The position numbers and the translations under genes are program-made. From positions 32,001-96,000 of the IMG/VR virus record IMGVR_UViG_3300035696_000004: a stretch of DNA of 64,000 bases; one strand, given 5' to 3'. Position 1 is the first letter of the stretch. Every line of letters starts with the position of its first letter. The stretch comes from a virus. Its lineage: Duplodnaviria; Caudoviricetes. The notes below the pieces were generated by a model. It had not been told where the DNA came from. It did not search any database and saw nothing but the letters and a program-made list of their open reading frames with translations. Below, piece after piece: positions 3,421 through 47,003 of the stretch.

Positions 3421-5817
3421 ATGCCTACTGCAACAACTTATGCTTACGATCCGACGGGTGTCCTCCCTGCGAATCTGGTGCCAAATGAGCAGCAAATCCT
3501 CACGCCGAATGTGTTTGCGGAGTACTATTGCATCGTCCCCAACTTCGCTCCGTTCTTTGGCGATTCGTTGTCGATCGTGTTTGTGCCCGCTGATACGACC
3601 CAGGCCTCCAGACCGTTTGTATTGGGTACCGATTTTTATCCGACGCACGAGTTCATCTCGGCGTCCCGAGCGTGCGCCAAACCGATCTATGGGTCGATCA
3701 CGTTCTTCAATACCAGTTTGTCTGGTGTGGCTATCATTTCGTATCAAACACTCGGTGGTCAGTGGCTGATCAACCAGCAAGAAATTGCGACGATACTGGC
3801 TGATACGGAGCACAACCCGAGAACGACCGCTTGGGAAGAAGTGGTCTATGTGCCGAACAACTTCCCTCCGGTTGACCATGAATGGAATCTGGTTGACATG
3901 GTCGGAATGAGCGAAATCGTTACAGCGCTCGGTACTATCGAAACCTCGCTCCGAGATATGACTCAGACAGGGTTGGCTGCTCACCTGGCAGACTATACCA
4001 ATCCGCACCGCGTGACGGCATCGCAAGTCGGCCTCGGGAATGTCGACAACTTCACGACGGCGACGCTGCAAGACGCTTTGGCGGGTACCGCAACGAATGA
4101 ATTCATGACGCCCTACACAACGATGCAAGTCGTTGATACGGTCGCTCTGGAACCGTTGCAAACTCACATGGCGGATTACACCAACTCCCACAAGGTCACG
4201 GCTGCTCAAACGGGAGCCTACACGTCTAGCCAAACCGATGCACTGCTCATAAAGAAGCTGGATTCTACTGGAGTGGCAGCGGATTCGGCGATGTTCGGTG
4301 GCAAGACGCCAGCGGCGTATGCGGCTGCTGTGTTGCTGGGTACCGCTGCGAATGCGCAAGCTCTGGGCGGTGTTTCTCTGGCTACCTTGCAGGCCTCGAT
4401 CACGGCGGCCGGCACGTCCGCGACGACCTTTGGTGGTTTTACCTACAGTGCTGCGAAACAAGACATTCTTTCCGGTACTGCCGCCAATTCGTTGGAGCTG
4501 GCTGGGATGGATGTCCCGACGTTGACCGCACAGATTCTGGGAGGCACAGCCGCTAACGCCTCGGTAGCAGAGAATGCACAGGCGCTCAGTGGGTTGTCGG
4601 TATCGGATCTGACGACGCAGATTTTGGCGGGTACCGCAGCAAACGCTACCCAATTTGCGGGTTTGACGCAATCTGCTTGGGAGCAGACGATTGCGAACCA
4701 AATCACCGAAGCCACGTCGTCGATCTTGGCAGCACCTACGATCGCCGCTACCACTGGTGATACGGTCAACGCAACGTGGTACAAGTTCGCCACGCTCATG
4801 TTCACATCGGGGCAATCGGCTGTTCCTGCTGATGGTGATTCTCAGTGGCTGGTGTCGGGTGGTGATAACGGTACGGCGTCAGGTCTTTACTACGTGCGCC
4901 TCTCGTTGCGCGGAGCGTTGGGATCTGAAGCTAGCATCGAAGTCATCAATCTGAATGGCGTCAGTGCGGATGTGGACTTCGGTTTCAACACGGTTCAAAG
5001 CGCTACCGGTAGCTCGGTGTACAATGTTGGAGTCTGGTTCAAAGCGGGTGCAAACCATAGTCAAGTGACCGTGGTTCAACTGGCGATTGGTCAGGGCTCG
5101 ACTCTTACGACATCGACGATTGCTGAATCGGCTGTGACGGTAGAACCAACCGGAATGACGTACGCCGGCTCCAATACGTTGATAGCTGCCACCACGGCTG
5201 AGCTCAATTCTCTCGATACGACCTTGACTGCATTGATCAACACCGCTCAAACGGCAGCGACCAATGCCGCAGCGGCTGCAACTGTTGCTCAAAACGTTGC
5301 TACCGCTGCGTTGGCTAAAGCCAACAACCTGTCGGACTTGACAGACGTTGTCGCAGCTCGCACCAATCTCGGTGTCTACAGCACCACCCAGGTGGACACG
5401 AGCATTTCGACAGTGACGACGCTAGCTAATCAAGCGAAGTCGTGGGCACAAAACGCTTTGGCATCGGCAAACACTGCGAATAACGCTATAGCGACACCTG
5501 TTGTTACGGTGGATGCTGCAACAAGAACGTTGCTGGCCACGGACCCGTCCTATTCTGGAAATGTCGGGAGCACGTTGCTATTTAACGGCACTACTGACCA
5601 GACTTTCTACGTTGCAGATGATACCGCCGCTGTTGTTCCAGTGTATGCGATTCTCGAAGTGTACAATACCGGATCGGGTAATCTGACGATCACGGTCGCG
5701 GATGCTAGCGTTTCGCTGAATGGTTCGACTACGTTCAGCAAAGTCATCAGTGCGTACACCAAAGCCACGCTCAAGAAGATCGCAGCCAATACCTGGTTGG
5801 TGACGGTTAGCGCTTAA
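3421..5817 (+). CDS. tail fibre / baseplate fibre protein (phiKZ gp131-like N-terminus)
   Basis: N-terminal YDPTG..P.NLV motif, H..DY.NPH.VTA.Q repeats, GTAANA repeats, KANNLSDL..ARTNLGV fibre motif; RBS AGGAGG. Confidence 0.75.
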   Translation: MPTATTYAYDPTGVLPANLVPNEQQILTPNVFAEYYCIVPNFAPFFGDSLSIVFVPADTTQASRPFVLGTDFYPTHEFISASRACAKPIYGSITFFNTSLSGVAIISYQTLGGQWLINQQEIATILADTEHNPRTTAWEEVVYVPNNFPPVDHEWNLVDMVGMSEIVTALGTIETSLRDMTQTGLAAHLADYTNPHRVTASQVGLGNVDNFTTATLQDALAGTATNEFMTPYTTMQVVDTVALEPLQTHMADYTNSHKVTAAQTGAYTSSQTDALLIKKLDSTGVAADSAMFGGKTPAAYAAAVLLGTAANAQALGGVSLATLQASITAAGTSATTFGGFTYSAAKQDILSGTAANSLELAGMDVPTLTAQILGGTAANASVAENAQALSGLSVSDLTTQILAGTAANATQFAGLTQSAWEQTIANQITEATSSILAAPTIAATTGDTVNATWYKFATLMFTSGQSAVPADGDSQWLVSGGDNGTASGLYYVRLSLRGALGSEASIEVINLNGVSADVDFGFNTVQSATGSSVYNVGVWFKAGANHSQVTVVQLAIGQGSTLTTSTIAESAVTVEPTGMTYAGSNTLIAATTAELNSLDTTLTALINTAQTAATNAAAAATVAQNVATAALAKANNLSDLTDVVAARTNLGVYSTTQVDTSISTVTTLANQAKSWAQNALASANTANNAIATPVVTVDAATRTLLATDPSYSGNVGSTLLFNGTTDQTFYVADDTAAVVPVYAILEVYNTGSGNLTITVADASVSLNGSTTFSKVISAYTKATLKKIAANTWLVTVSA
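4324..4650 (+). repeat. intragenic peptide repeats (x-L-x-GTAANA..L/F-x-G), about 4 copies
   Basis: VLLGTAANAQALGG, ILSGTAANSLELAG, ILGGTAANA..QALSG, ILAGTAANATQFAG in the translation; boundaries approximate. Confidence 0.65.
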
Positions 5818-5831
5818 TAAATCATAGAGGG

Positions 5832-5855
5832 CAGCCACGGAAACGTGGCTGTTTT
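5832..5855 (+). terminator. hairpin plus T-run between the fibre genes
   Basis: CAGCCACG-GAAA-CGTGGCTG followed by TTTT. Confidence 0.55.
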
Positions 5856-5859
5856 ATCA

Positions 5860-6888
5860 ATGACCACGTTGATTCAATACCCGCTAGATCCCACAGGGGC
5901 GTCTCCGACAAACCTCGTGGAGAATGAACCCCATACACTGACCACCCGAACGTATCGTTGCTTTGCGACCGATTACGGTGCGTTCTTCGAAACCTCCATG
6001 GTCGTGACCGATGTGGCGACAGGGAAACCACTTACCTCTGACCAGTTCTACTGCGCCGAGATGTACGAGCTTCCGTCGGCACGATACGGCCAAGAGATTG
6101 ATGCCATTGTCGTGATTACGGATAGCGCGATCAGCAACAATGTAACCGTCACGTATCAAGCACTGGGTGGTCCTTACAGTACGGCTGCTACGGCGATTAT
6201 CAGTCAGCTCAATGCGCTCCAGCTGGATGATCGCCCTATCTCGTGGCCGAACATCGAGATGAAGCCGTCCGAATACCCTCCGAGTTTCCACTTGCACGAT
6301 ATCGGGGATGTATACGGTTTCGAATATCTGGTTCATGCCATCGATCGAGTGAGGGCTGCAATCGAGCTGGGTGACGCTGCATCGAACGACGGTATCTACA
6401 AGTACATCGATTCACAGATCGCTGCTCTGAATTCGATTCTGAGTACCGCCAATGCCGCTTTGACAACCCACTTGAACAACTTTTCGAACCCGCATAACGT
6501 GACGGCTGCCCAAACAGGCGCCATGACGGCAGCGGATACTCAGTCGTTGGTATCAGGTGTCGAGTCGGAATTGCAAGCGCACATTCAGAATCAATCGAAT
6601 CCTCACGATGTGACGGCTGCCCAAATTGATGTCTATACGAAGGAACAGTCCGATTCGAACTATCCTTCGATGGCGCAATTTAACGCGTTGCTCGCCGCAT
6701 TCAATCAGCACATCCAAAACCAATCGAACCCGCACAATGTGACAGCGGCTCAATTGGGTGTGACAACGACGGCTTCGTTGACGGCTCTTCTGGCGGGCTA
6801 TCAGCCTCTGTCGAGTGCTGTCAATGCAAGCAACTTCAACTCGTACTGGGATACGCGCTTGAGTCAGCGCATGGCCTTCACGTATTGA
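5860..6888 (+). CDS. fibre-family paralog (virion structural protein)
   Basis: YPLDPTG.SP.NLV N-terminus like the 3421 ORF; three NPH.VTAAQ repeats; ATG at 5860 preferred over GTG 5845, which lies in the hairpin. Confidence 0.75.
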   Translation: MTTLIQYPLDPTGASPTNLVENEPHTLTTRTYRCFATDYGAFFETSMVVTDVATGKPLTSDQFYCAEMYELPSARYGQEIDAIVVITDSAISNNVTVTYQALGGPYSTAATAIISQLNALQLDDRPISWPNIEMKPSEYPPSFHLHDIGDVYGFEYLVHAIDRVRAAIELGDAASNDGIYKYIDSQIAALNSILSTANAALTTHLNNFSNPHNVTAAQTGAMTAADTQSLVSGVESELQAHIQNQSNPHDVTAAQIDVYTKEQSDSNYPSMAQFNALLAAFNQHIQNQSNPHNVTAAQLGVTTTASLTALLAGYQPLSSAVNASNFNSYWDTRLSQRMAFTY

Positions 6889-6907: not shown

Positions 6908-7441
6908 ATGACAACGCTTTCGTTGAGTACGTTGACACCTGCCTTCTTGAATCGTCCCAATGATTCGATCCTGCGTGATTTGATTTATCACTTCACCAAG
7001 TTCGACATAGGTCGGTACAACAACGTCACCTATGGTCTTCCTACTATCTTGGATATCAAGAAAACGGTAGACCTGGATGAGAACACGTTGTTGACCGTAA
7101 AGATTCCTCGATCGGAGAACTTCCGATTCAATGGAGCGTATCATGCTCTGTATCGACGAATCCGATTCAGTGAAGCCGGTATCAGTTATATCCACGGGAA
7201 CTTCAGTCTTCCGATCAATACGCAAGACCTGGTTCCAATTATCAACAAGCAGTTCAACCTCCAACTGACGACTGACGATATCACCAATATCGAATACACG
7301 TCAGCAACGACAGCTGTTACCTTGAAAGCCAACCCGAATTCGAGAGTGTGGTTCGACTCTCTTCAAGTCGGTATTCAGGATAAGTTGTTTGCTGTCGTGA
7401 ATCTTTCGGGATTCAAAGAAGTCGTCATAGAGCCATTCTAG
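6908..7441 (+). CDS. hypothetical, probably virion-associated protein
   Basis: 177-aa ORF with RBS AAGGAGG; co-transcribed with the fibre genes. Confidence 0.7.
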   Translation: MTTLSLSTLTPAFLNRPNDSILRDLIYHFTKFDIGRYNNVTYGLPTILDIKKTVDLDENTLLTVKIPRSENFRFNGAYHALYRRIRFSEAGISYIHGNFSLPINTQDLVPIINKQFNLQLTTDDITNIEYTSATTAVTLKANPNSRVWFDSLQVGIQDKLFAVVNLSGFKEVVIEPF

Positions 7442-16164: not shown

Positions 16165-16199
16165 CATAGACCCCCGGAGCATTGCTCCGGGGGTCTATG
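16165..16199. terminator. bidirectional hairpin between convergent genes
   Basis: Perfect 16-bp stem CATAGACCCCCGGAGC / GCTCCGGGGGTCTATG. Confidence 0.8.
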
Positions 16200-44467: not shown

Positions 44468-45442
44468 TTAAGGGTGTGACCAGGCATTCAAATAGTCACG
44501 ATCGCGGAAGGGTTCCACCAAGAACGCTTCATTAAACTGCTCAGCCTGCAAGAGGCGTTCACGAATCCTCCAGAGTTCTTCGGCCTGACACGCATGACCT
44601 TTCTGACCAAAGACATCCGAGAAGCCGGTTGCTTTTTTCAGAATTTCTTGGAGTTCGGGGTTTTCGTAGATGTAGAGTATCCAAAGATGCTCGTAATACT
44701 TCCGGCATTCCTGGATATTGATCGGGCATTTTCCTTTGGCTTCTTGCCAAGAGAGTCCGGTCTGACCTCCTTCAAACACTTTGTAGCGCTGATAGAGTGT
44801 TTCGATCGACATATTCCCATACTTCTTGACCCGTGCGTAAAACGCGCTGAGTCGACGATCCCCTTTACTGCTGCACTCGAGATACGGTGCCTCACCAAAA
44901 CGCAACATGTCATTTCCTTTCTTTACTAAGCGATCCGCAATCGCCACAATTTGATCATCTGTTAAGTCGTCGACATCCATCCCCGGTGGCAAGATATGGA
45001 ATCGATCAACGTGGTGCGCTAGTAGAAAACCCCCTGCATCCCCGTCGCACATAGAGAGCGTGCGGTTAGGAATCGCTCTAAACCATTGGGTGAGGTTTAG
45101 AGGGTCTGCCCCAAATACGGCAACAGCGTTATAGCCCAGCCGTTTTAGCCGATTTGCATCGAATATCCCCTCCTGAACAAATAAGGGCTTTTTCGGATCG
45201 TACGTTTCAAGACCCCACATACCGAGCTCAACATTATGCCATCGATACCGAGAGAGGTAGGTGTAGTATTTCGCCAATTTAGGGTTGTCGGGATTGTGTT
45301 TTGGATAGGACGGGTTGTAAACCTGGAAACCAATCAATTGTCCCGATAGATTCCAAACCAAAAAGGTTGCATCCACATCCGTCACTGTCAATCCAGGGTA
45401 ATCGTCAGGATTGAGATGTCTGGAGAGGAGGTGTTGATGCAT
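44468..45442 (-). CDS. Toprim primase-like domain fused in frame to a NADAR-like domain
   Basis: VQEGIFDA and CDGDAGG Toprim motifs; C-terminal LSAFY..SIE.LYQ.YKVF..ENPEL..SDVFG; internal RBS and ATG at 44908. Confidence 0.7.
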   Translation of the reverse strand: MHQHLLSRHLNPDDYPGLTVTDVDATFLVWNLSGQLIGFQVYNPSYPKHNPDNPKLAKYYTYLSRYRWHNVELGMWGLETYDPKKPLFVQEGIFDANRLKRLGYNAVAVFGADPLNLTQWFRAIPNRTLSMCDGDAGGFLLAHHVDRFHILPPGMDVDDLTDDQIVAIADRLVKKGNDMLRFGEAPYLECSSKGDRRLSAFYARVKKYGNMSIETLYQRYKVFEGGQTGLSWQEAKGKCPINIQECRKYYEHLWILYIYENPELQEILKKATGFSDVFGQKGHACQAEELWRIRERLLQAEQFNEAFLVEPFRDRDYLNAWSHP

Positions 45443-45902
45443 GTTCGAGTTCTTTCTTTCTTTTGGCTCTGAGAGCCTGTCGGGTGATCGACCGGCAATA
45501 GGGGCAATATCGGCGCGTCTGATTCCCTTTAGGCATACGCAAACGATGTCCTCGTTTGCAATAGTCTTTGGGACAAGTCCGACCTAGTCGCCATGTCAGA
45601 TTATCGAGCGTGATCGGCTGGTCCAGATCAACGATGGTTCCGACCTCACCTTTCACGGGCGGCCTGACAAACGTCGACAACATCAGAGCATAGAGCATCT
45701 TGCGACGATAGACACCATCGATGCAGAGGCTTACACCAGGATAACCCTGGGTGTCATACGTCACCTTGAGTATTTTACCGGGGAGCATCTGCCCGTGTCG
45801 ACCGATGTGTTCCTTTGAACGGAAGTTCCCTAAGTTGGAGATTTCGTAAATTCCTTCACTCCCATATGCGGGTTTCCAGATTTCATTCATATCGAGTGTC
45901 AT
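45405..45902 (-). CDS. NUMOD4 protein with degenerate HNH and a CKRGH/CxxC motif
   Basis: EIWKPAYGSEGIYEISNLGNFRS; paralog of the 16624 ORF. Confidence 0.75.
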   Translation of the reverse strand: MTLDMNEIWKPAYGSEGIYEISNLGNFRSKEHIGRHGQMLPGKILKVTYDTQGYPGVSLCIDGVYRRKMLYALMLSTFVRPPVKGEVGTIVDLDQPITLDNLTWRLGRTCPKDYCKRGHRLRMPKGNQTRRYCPYCRSITRQALRAKRKKELEHASTPPLQTSQS

Positions 45903-45938
45903 TCAGTGTTCCAAATAAAAAGTATGGATGGGTCATAA

Positions 45939-45960
45939 GGAGCAGCCCGAAGGCTGCTCC
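45939..45960 (-). terminator. hairpin ending the ribozyme-containing interval
   Basis: GGAGCAGCC-CGAA-GGCTGCTCC (UUCG loop on the minus strand). Confidence 0.7.
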
Positions 45961-46243
45961 CGTAGTATCACGTAAAGAGGCACTCCATTGCATCGTATTC
46001 CTCCACTGGCCATCTGGATCGATACGATGCAACAGGCTGCTTCCTAAAGCCAAGCTATTCGGGTGCGGCAACGGACCCGATGGCCAGACTCGTGTAGAAA
46101 ACAACTTCTCGGGGATAGCGCCCACGAGCGTACGATTAAGTCAGAAGCGGTCTCGCTACAAACCACTCCGACACCTCTGATGATACATCGTGAGGTCTCA
46201 TTTGCCGCTGCCACCGCCGCATCTCGGGCAAAATGGCGCGCGG

Positions 46244-46309
46244 CGCTTGACGCCACCAGATACGATGGCGTTTCGTTCCTTTATACGTGGCCGGAACTCA
46301 TCAGAAGCG
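46244..46309 (-). ncRNA. type I hammerhead ribozyme
   Basis: Minus strand CGCUU-CUGAUGA-GUUCC(loop 13)GGAAC-GAAA-CGCCA(loop 10)UGGCG-UC-AAGCG: all core nucleotides and three perfect 5-bp stems; predicted cleavage after GUC, between 46249 and 46248. Confidence 0.9.
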
Positions 46310-46368
46310 TAGCCTTGTGTCTGTGCACATCATTGCGTAGCTGTGTAAAAAACCACTCGCCGGACCTA

Positions 46369-46710
46369 CTACCCACGATCAATTTCGATCGTGGACGGGA
46401 TCACGCCATTCCCTTGGCCGAGGTAGCGAACGAGAGCGAATTCGATCGACTTGAGCGGGTTCGGATCGGATTCATCGATCAGGATGCGGTATACTTGTCG
46501 TTTCGGGGTATCCGGTTCGGCGTCAGCGGTTTGCTCGTCGCCGGTGCCCAGGATGGTCTTGACGATTTCTTTGGCACGTTCTTTGATCGTGCTGGAAATC
46601 TGTTCGTCGAGGGCGCCGAGGTCGTCCGCGATGTTCCGGACCCTAATCAGGGCGTCCAGCTCGACTTCCAGGGCTTCGAATTTTTGTTTGAGGGGTACGT
46701 GTACTTGCAT
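46369..46710 (-). CDS. hypothetical protein with an N-terminal coiled coil
   Basis: Start re-assigned to MQVHVP (46710) after AAAGAAAG; immediately upstream of the ribozyme. Confidence 0.65.
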   Translation of the reverse strand: MQVHVPLKQKFEALEVELDALIRVRNIADDLGALDEQISSTIKERAKEIVKTILGTGDEQTADAEPDTPKRQVYRILIDESDPNPLKSIEFALVRYLGQGNGVIPSTIEIDRG

Positions 46711-46772
46711 GGGTGTTTTCTTTCTTTCGTTGTGTGGAGTTTGGACATAGTAAAGCCAACTGATGTAAAAAA

Positions 46773-47003
46773 TCAGTCCGCTTTGTAGGTGTGGTATGCA
46801 CAGATCGTACAATACCTTCCCTCACCTGCGACTTGGGCGTATTTGAAATCATGCCCTTGTTCACCGCATTCTCGCTGGAGTTCTTCCAGTTCGAAACGAT
46901 GTGTGTTCGCGAGCTCTTGGCGTTCTTTGTCTTGCTTTGCGCGGAGACACGATACTCTCACCGCCATGATGGTCCTATGCGTCATCAATGCCATTCCATC
47001 CAC
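46773..47003 (-). CDS. small protein with a C..GH...C.IC motif
   Basis: ECGEQGHDF...YCTIC; start possibly at 46994. Confidence 0.6.
   Translation of the reverse strand: MDGMALMTHRTIMAVRVSCLRAKQDKERQELANTHRFELEELQRECGEQGHDFKYAQVAGEGRYCTICAYHTYKAD

Follow-up and report, generated by a model that had tools for sequence, protein, structure and literature searches.

A predicted hammerhead-released RNA with a conserved two-helix core in a phiKZ-like jumbo phage

Self-cleaving ribozymes have been known in phages since 2011; for hammerheads that lie between operon genes in phages and prophages, the proposed role is to divide polycistronic transcripts into shorter messages (PMC3088659). Phages and prophages also carry the large ornate RNAs GOLLD (RF02032) and ROOL, often near transfer RNA (tRNA) genes (PMC5737381). 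Here we describe a locus at which a predicted type I hammerhead stands at the head of about 310 nucleotides (nt) of structured RNA. It lies on the minus strand of a 64,000-nt stretch of DNA (the window), which comprises bases 32001-96000 of IMGVR_UViG_3300035696_000004, a 219,772-base-pair (bp) IMG/VR virus record with direct terminal repeats. We think it probable that the hammerhead releases this piece as a discrete non-coding RNA, and that the RNA is a member of a conserved phage RNA family. It would be transcribed as the 3′ tail of an operon ending in an open reading frame (ORF) of 147 amino acids (aa), and the hammerhead, stabilised by a pseudoknot between its 5′ flank and loop II, would cut itself after C46249 during transcription, freeing an RNA with a 5′-hydroxyl (5′-OH) end whose 3′ end would be set or protected by a UUCG hairpin. 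The RNA would consist of a variable 5′ domain and a conserved 3′ core, in which two helices (H1 and H2) meet at a junction with the invariant motifs AAGUUGU, GCAGCC(U)GU and UGGRG. Both cleavage and termination in vivo are what we infer from the sequence. The positions of all features are collected in Table 1.

The ribozyme is complete in sequence and, by its motif, looks competent. Helix I is CGCUU/AAGCG (5 bp, with its 5′ strand at 46310-46305), the core reads CUGAUGA, and helix II is GUUCC/GGAAC (5 bp) with GAAA behind it; helix III is 8-9 bp long, and GUC, the cleavage triplet, has its last base at 46249, the predicted cut falling between C46249 and A46248. The A-U closing pair (A15.1-U16.1) is present, and C3-A9, G12-A14 and an NUH triplet are all in place. 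Helices II and III are closed by loops and helix I is open, as in the homologues described below, and the predicted pseudoknot joins GGCU (46314-46311) to GGCC at the start of loop II (46292-46289). A structural scan of the whole genome gave this single complete hammerhead and one other, far weaker relaxed match, compared to one relaxed match in 40 first-order Markov genomes (~0.025 per genome). An earlier note, made from the letters of the window, had proposed hammerhead cleavage upstream of the RNA, and the full core, the three helices, the GUC and the uniqueness of the match in the genome bear this out as a prediction. The Rfam hammerhead models give no match at gathering level in the window; the best match, to Hammerhead_3, is a permuted alignment that scores 16.5 bits where the threshold is 48.5, and the homologues in cultured phages are likewise overlooked by these models. 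Nor does any of the 4227 Rfam families match the window at gathering level, and at E ≤10 the region 45700-46600 gives only the 16.5-bit hammerhead and chance microRNA-like matches.

The RNA that would follow the cut is predicted to fold unusually well. When cut at the start codon of the HNH-type gene that follows (46248..45903, 346 nt), its predicted folding energy is -142.4 kcal/mol compared to -115.8 ± 5.9 for shuffled sequences (z = -4.53; none of 100 shuffles equals it). We scored ORFs by a codon-usage log-odds measure trained on this genome, and those within the RNA region reach -0.009, -0.181 and -0.171, whereas neighbouring genes lie between +0.08 and +0.20. The region is without coding signal, its ORFs scoring at or below zero, and holds no credible ORF, as the earlier note had said of the stretch between the cleavage site and the hairpin; a small encoded protein was rejected. 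The note's proposal of a ribozyme-matured, structured phage RNA that lacks an ORF and ends at the UUCG hairpin is, as a prediction, supported by motif, fold and codon scores together, and all the sequence features it listed are found where it had placed them, on the minus strand.

Related loci were sought with a DNA pattern for a hammerhead with this helix II, which found five viral contigs. One of these (L006) lies within G001 (IMGVR_UViG_3300031933_000215), a distant jumbo relative whose 231,818-bp genome has 87 ORFs in common with this one, at 25-63% amino acid identity and in syntenic blocks. A single hammerhead is present in G001. Its helix II is identical, and behind it come 287 ORF-poor nt, a UUCG hairpin with CTATACC, about 30 nt and the next gene; the counterpart RNA folds with z = -5.0. 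The two phages are alike in the hammerhead, in the RNA (287 nt in G001) with its UUCG end, in the H1/H2 core and in the vicinity of a dCTP deaminase gene, which lies a few kilobases (kb) from the RNA locus in both. They differ upstream of the ribozyme, where G001 has ~230 nt more non-coding sequence and a terminator-type hairpin, while in this phage the ribozyme directly follows a protein gene. The 5′ domains can barely be aligned; the third 5′-domain hairpin is the only one with any resemblance to G001, a weak one at a matching offset (z = 2.6 for the local alignment, equalled by 7 of 300 shuffles).

A blastn search with the G001 locus showed that cultured phages carry this hammerhead too, in gaps left without annotation, namely 17 Erwinia Agricanvirus records, the Klebsiella phages Miami, YC1, KPN8 and phiKp_32, one Stenotrophomonas phage, one Raoultella phage, and the N4-like Pseudomonas phages ZC03 and ZC08. 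Another pattern scan gave additional IMG/VR lineages with the hammerhead. The flank and loop II would pair as CGUCG/CGACG in G001 and Deimos-Minion, as AGUCG/CGACU in the ZC03 type and as CGUCU/AGACG in AH06, and the GGCU/GGCC of this window is in the same register as the pairs of G001, ZC03 and AH06. By this comparison the hammerheads of this phage, G001, ZC03/ZC08, the IMG/VR contig L139 and Agricanvirus are homologous and share a predicted, covarying pseudoknot. Those of Agricanvirus (L133:1512-1655 in Deimos-Minion; L134 in AH06) carry a ~95-nt insertion in helix III and lie in a 1.27-kb unannotated gap. A YrlA-like (Y RNA-like) match below threshold was also seen (L133:348-411; 44.5 bits against 69). 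The RNA lies within tRNA gene clusters in several lineages, directly behind a tRNA in ZC03 and L167, and also in two jumbo phages without any tRNA gene (the scan of the window and of both jumbo genomes, this phage and G001, found zero). The hammerhead starts within 2 nt of the tRNA 3′ end in L167 (772-882) and ~15 nt from it in ZC03 (L135:1411-1565), and therefore tRNA 3′ maturation and ribozyme folding would share sequence. Wider scans added little: a metagenome scan for this helix II gave 62 loci, with G001 itself the only close relative of the RNA, and a three-part pattern gave 23 loci in viral contigs, only L139 being real and the others chance matches in coding DNA. As a separate observation, a 50.9-kb viral contig that also holds a hammerhead has a pistol ribozyme match over threshold (L003:7407-7472(-), 42.1 bits).

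What these loci have in common beyond the ribozyme is a module with the order AAGUUGU, H1, GCAGCC(U)GU, H2, UGGRG. Pairing of GUUGU with GCAGC closes H1, and CC(U)GU with a downstream (R)UGG closes H2, which in this phage has a loop of 23 nt (46021-45999) and closes on UGG(AG) at 45987-45983. The motif AAGUUGU is common to this phage, G001, ZC03/ZC08, L139, L169 and Agricanvirus, and lies 170-197 nt past the ribozyme core, or ~290 nt in Agricanvirus with its helix III insertion. AAGUUGU and GCAGCC(U)GU are collinear and 44-60 nt apart in independent lineages; by our estimate, chance would give a 9-mer common to three independent RNAs and also a 7-mer at the matching offset with a probability of <1e-5.

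ZC03, ZC08 and L139 alone supplied the sequences for a covariance model (R1) of 11 + 13 pairs, which we then ran unfiltered. In the 4 kb that surround the locus, its best match is 46108..45981 (17.6 bits, E 0.0015), at full length and with no non-standard pair. In a search of 87 kb, leaving the seed phages aside, it matches best at L006:1801-1925 (E 0.009) and at the same segment of the window (E 0.03), with noise beginning at E ~0.9; L166 and L169 are also matched, the latter ~190 nt past its hammerhead. All 24 H1/H2 pairs are standard in both the window and G001, with stem sequences that differ. In four lineages that had no part in the seed, standard pairs fill 96.6% of pair cells, compared to 36-48% when the partners are slid, and 12 of the 24 pairs are changed on both sides (8 of 13 in H2); no observed measure is reached by any of 500 shuffles. 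Folded on its own by minimum free energy, the window RNA gives the same H1 and H2. The core is, by these comparisons, a covarying module conserved over at least four other phage lineages, and it lies behind homologous hammerheads in G001, ZC03/ZC08 and the IMG/VR contigs L139, L169 and L166, Agricanvirus keeping the motifs only (its AAGUUGU can pair locally with ACAGC). The earlier note had named covariation with related phages as a check on such an RNA. Structure with compensatory changes is conserved behind related hammerheads, and the window itself shows the homologous hammerhead with its pseudoknot, the collinear motifs and the covarying helices. No paper describing the H1/H2 RNA family was found; the family is uncatalogued, and phage-operon hammerheads themselves are known (PMC3088659).

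Several points weigh against a conserved, released RNA. The pair counts come from an alignment fitted to the R1 structure, and are biased towards it. The R1 E-value for the window in 87 kb is modest, Agricanvirus is unmatched by R1, and single-sequence nhmmer searches between the RNAs and genomes gave nothing at E ≤10, similarity being weak outside the short motifs. The hammerhead pattern is missing from 41 other phiKZ-like records (possibly fragments), which makes this a patchy element. The UUCG hairpin has no U-tract, and termination there is read from genome-wide placement only. Finally, the record's sequence occurs in only three sequencing runs, all of them DNA from peat metagenomes, with no RNA run listed among them; all three are identical in sequence, and therefore offer no variants usable for covariation.

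Table 1. Positions of the predicted RNA, its parts and the neighbouring genes in the window
Feature	Position	Strand	Remarks
Type I hammerhead ribozyme (predicted)	46243..46314	-	Sequence reading and whole-genome structural scan
Predicted released RNA, ~310 nt	45939..46248	-	5′-OH at A46248; 3′ end at or just past the UUCG hairpin
Variable 5′ domain	46108..46248	-	Four predicted hairpins, 46244-46204, 46195-46174, 46172-46140 and 46128-46108 (minimum-free-energy fold)
Motif AAGUUGU (46107-46101) and helix H1	46036..46107	-	G46105 pairs C46036; 11 closing pairs; a variable inner hairpin is enclosed
CUGGCCAUC within H1	46079..46087	-	Complementary to GAUGGCCAG (46014-46006) of the H2 loop; 9 bp, exact
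Motif GCAGCCUGU (46040-46032) and helix H2	45985..46040	-	C46035 pairs G45985; 13-14 pairs
Terminator-like UUCG hairpin	45960-45939	-	Perfect 9-bp stem; then U and TATG (45937-45934)
147-aa orphan ORF, last protein gene of the upstream operon	46369..46812	-	ORF list; codon score +0.201
165-aa NUMOD4/HNH-type homing-endonuclease-like gene	45405..45902	-	PF07463 NUMOD4, 5.5e-13; PHROG HNH endonuclease families
Toprim-NADAR fusion, single ORF	44468-45442	-	Toprim without zinc-binding domain, and NADAR-like domain

The 3′ boundary rests on a comparison across the whole genome. The UUCG hairpin of the earlier note was confirmed, as a perfect 9-bp stem, but it is followed by UUAUGACCC and lacks the U-tract of a canonical intrinsic terminator, and a simple terminator scan omits it. 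Units made of a perfect GC-rich hairpin with TATG(A/C)C 0-6 nt behind it number 69 in this genome, compared to 7-16 in Markov controls, an excess of ~57 over a control of about 12. Most of them (47 of 69) are intergenic, typically 30-50 nt past stop codons; they are also found at convergent gene ends in both orientations, and many are bidirectional CATA...TATG palindromes. Examples in the window lie at 49008-48983(-), 43997(-), 16165-16199 and 34011-33984. The UUCG hairpin with its TATG belongs to these units, and owing to their placement just past genes it can be called terminator-like. TATG is an element of phiKZ late promoters, its G being the +1 of transcription (PMC4666361), conserved terminator motifs have been reported for phiKZ-like phages (PMC11512511), and the equivalent G001 hairpin matches features annotated as 'terminator' in phage Goslar. 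The hairpin and TATG units look like terminators that overlap a phiKZ-type late promoter motif, and the HNH-like gene may have its own transcription start. At this locus 435 nt separate the last stop codon from the hairpin, where 30-50 nt is typical, and therefore the RNA forms a long 3′ tail of the operon. We also noticed a recurrent string, (CGA)TTCTAGAATATTTCA, 20-40 nt past several of these units and upstream of genes (minus strand, genome positions 104873, 161238, 54927, 212252 and 148794; minus 32000 gives window coordinates where applicable), which is a candidate promoter of another temporal class.

Another explanation of the locus is plain operon processing, in which the hammerhead merely parts messages and the 310 nt are an untranslated leader or control element of the NUMOD4/HNH gene. 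Homing endonuclease genes are frequently under tight regulation, and this one begins 37 nt past the hairpin; the message-shortening role proposed for operon hammerheads (PMC3088659) points the same way. However, the H1/H2 core is kept where the downstream feature differs, this being tRNA-Asn in ZC03/ZC08 and L139, tRNA-Thr in L169, an 80-aa acidic ORF in G001 and gp209 in Agricanvirus, and an RNA whose downstream genes vary between lineages is therefore not a leader of the HNH gene. In addition, a strong terminator-type hairpin and TATG stand between the RNA and that gene, whose product is an orphan. We regard plain operon processing as unlikely.

The hammerhead could instead serve the upstream messenger RNA as a cis-acting 3′ element, cleavage stripping the terminator hairpin and tuning decay, with the released piece a by-product. 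The ribozyme does begin shortly after the operon, the stop codon of the 147-aa ORF being 59 nt ahead of helix I, and no terminator-type hairpin lies between operon and ribozyme. Elsewhere this arrangement breaks down: G001 has a terminator-type hairpin ~65 nt upstream of its hammerhead, and a tRNA lies directly ahead of the hammerhead in ZC03 and L167, so the upstream context is not conserved. A by-product would also not retain a covarying two-helix core across phage families, and we consider this possibility quite improbable.

It is very unlikely that the region is functionless DNA left over from a decayed gene, an intron or scar sequence that arrived with the mobile HNH gene. A homing-endonuclease-like gene does adjoin the RNA, and the Toprim gene matches only the later part of the primase profile (positions 150-343 of 435). 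Yet stand-alone Toprim proteins of ~180 aa are the norm among homologues, leaving no split gene to explain, features of a primase are missing from the upstream 147-aa ORF, intron models of group I and group II give no match, and the core is conserved with compensatory changes; a group I intron or split primase was rejected on the first three of these grounds.

The idea, raised in the earlier note, of a retrozyme-like circular RNA or a decayed second ribozyme is scarcely credible: it drew on a 9-nt repeat of the ribozyme start, CGCUUCUGA, which is real (46149-46141) but carries no weight, because ~0.35 repeated 9-mers are expected by chance in ~430 nt (our estimate), and this copy lies in a hairpin arm and continues with CUUAAUC instead of UGA...GAAA, without the rest of the core, while the 219.8-kb genome has one complete hammerhead, no other ribozyme family matches at E ≤10, and related loci have no second ribozyme there.

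The inverted repeats of that note fared differently. The 11-bp repeat (45988-45998/46022-46032) is exact and forms the core of the 14-bp hairpin H2; ACCUC/GAGGU and the 6-bp repeat (46059-46064/46075-46080) were likewise confirmed, and the minimum-free-energy fold contains the two of them. The 9-bp repeat (46006-46014/46079-46087) is also exact, and is matched by one of 300 loop shuffles. It had been taken as mutually exclusive with the 11-bp repeat and hence as a possible switch. This does not hold, as 46006-46014 sits in the loop of the 11-bp hairpin and the topology is that of a pseudoknot, in which both pairings can form; nor is the 9-bp pairing kept in other lineages, having no counterpart in the six other sequences compared. 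The pairing of CUGGCCAUC with GAUGGCCAG is possibly a lineage-specific pseudoknot, and was rejected as a family feature as it is found in this phage only. We also rejected a dimerisation signal in the palindromes of the H2 loop, since chance alone gives roughly one of 6 nt in every 75 nt.

The RNA polymerase beta fragment (split, multisubunit type), the tubulin homologue and the phiKZ-type divergent DNA polymerase encoded in the genome indicate that the phage carrying this RNA is a phiKZ-like jumbo phage of 219.8 kb. All credible genes around the locus are on the minus strand, and in the direction of transcription several small genes that begin behind the one for dCTP deaminase lead to the 147-aa ORF, a 466-nt gap, the NUMOD4/HNH-type gene and the Toprim-NADAR gene. 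Protein searches with the 147-aa ORF found neither a family match nor homologues, and the HNH-like protein has distant homologues only; as both are orphans, single-protein anchor searches for related loci gave nothing useful. A blastn search of the RNA locus against 50,697 phage records gave no match, and the 221-kb contig L007 has in common with this genome only the dCTP deaminase and NADAR parts.

The HNH-like gene itself stands outside the RNA family. Its protein has IVDLDQPITLDNLTW at the place of the H..N..N of HNH_3 proteins, and the usual catalytic histidines are seemingly missing while a C-terminal CxxxxC...CxxC motif is kept; possibly this is a homing endonuclease that has lost its activity or been domesticated. 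The 3′ end of the gene shares 38 nt with the next gene, the Toprim-NADAR fusion, and homologues of the two halves of that fusion are mostly separate proteins of ~180 aa. Beyond the window, the genome has three paralogous HNH/AP2-type endonuclease-like genes (166770-167705, 200051-201265 and 217139-218329), one of which has 61-63% identity to a G001 protein, well over the genome average. This suggests that homing endonuclease genes were recently exchanged between the two phages.

If the hammerhead does release a member of a conserved family, the RNA might act in trans as a stable molecule, its conserved junction engaging a partner that many hosts or phages have in common, as has been proposed for RNAs of the GOLLD/ROOL type; we offer this tentatively, at somewhat less than an even chance. 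In two IMG/VR contigs, a type I hammerhead whose helix II is the same as here lies 373-380 nt upstream of an Rfam GOLLD match, on the same strand (L002: hammerhead 7025-7087(-), GOLLD 6186-6653(-); L004: hammerhead 6519-6574(-), GOLLD 5724-6146(-)). The constant spacing suggests that the ribozyme sets the 5′ end of the GOLLD RNA; ribozyme capping may be common to GOLLD and the H1/H2 RNA, which hints at a common maturation route for the 'ornate' RNAs of phages. We found no paper describing such a link among those pairing GOLLD with 'hammerhead' or 'self-cleaving'.

A bolder and rather doubtful proposal is that hammerhead-capped structured RNAs form a widespread, uncatalogued class of phage non-coding RNA. 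The H1/H2 family would span nucleus-forming jumbo phages and N4-like phages, GOLLD would be headed by the same kind of hammerhead, the 5′-OH end would be host-independent and resistant to decay, and the junction would engage a partner shared across hosts, such as a component of RNA processing, tRNA-directed defence or translation. Were this true, such RNAs would be a general phage counter-measure or takeover device. The locus ties phage self-cleaving ribozymes to what appears to be a conserved folded RNA across unrelated phage groups and hosts, and a ribozyme of obscure purpose becomes a testable unit. The ribozyme family has cultured carriers in Pseudomonas phages ZC03/ZC08, the Erwinia Agricanvirus phages and Klebsiella phage Miami, and as the H1/H2 core is detected in ZC03/ZC08, cleavage, accumulation, partners and knock-out phenotypes can be examined there.

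When set beside the described systems, the RNA is like GOLLD and ROOL in being phage-borne, gene-free and strongly folded, and in lying within tRNA clusters in several lineages. It is smaller, at ~310 nt compared to ~580 nt for ROOL and more for GOLLD (PMC5737381), its core is limited to two helices with a conserved junction, and its sequence is not similar to theirs; the GOLLD and ROOL covariance models give no match at E ≤10 in 45700-46600, while the same method finds GOLLD at 190-202 bits in L002 and L004. It resembles HEARO, the IscB omega-RNA, as a structured RNA of ~300 nt directly upstream of an HNH-type ORF, but that neighbour is a 165-aa protein of the NUMOD4 homing-endonuclease type and not IscB, and elsewhere the RNA family occurs without an HNH gene. 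An IscB-type guide RNA was rejected, with no RF02033 match and no adjacent IscB-type (RuvC+HNH) protein. The ribozyme is also close to the type I hammerheads of phages and prophages that have a pseudoknot between loop II and the 5′ flank (PMC3088659; Rfam clan CL00010), with which it has in common the core, the three helices, the GUC and the open helix I, as well as the predicted pseudoknot and a position between operon genes. Unlike those, it scores far below the Rfam threshold and, instead of just parting protein genes, appears to head a conserved structured RNA.

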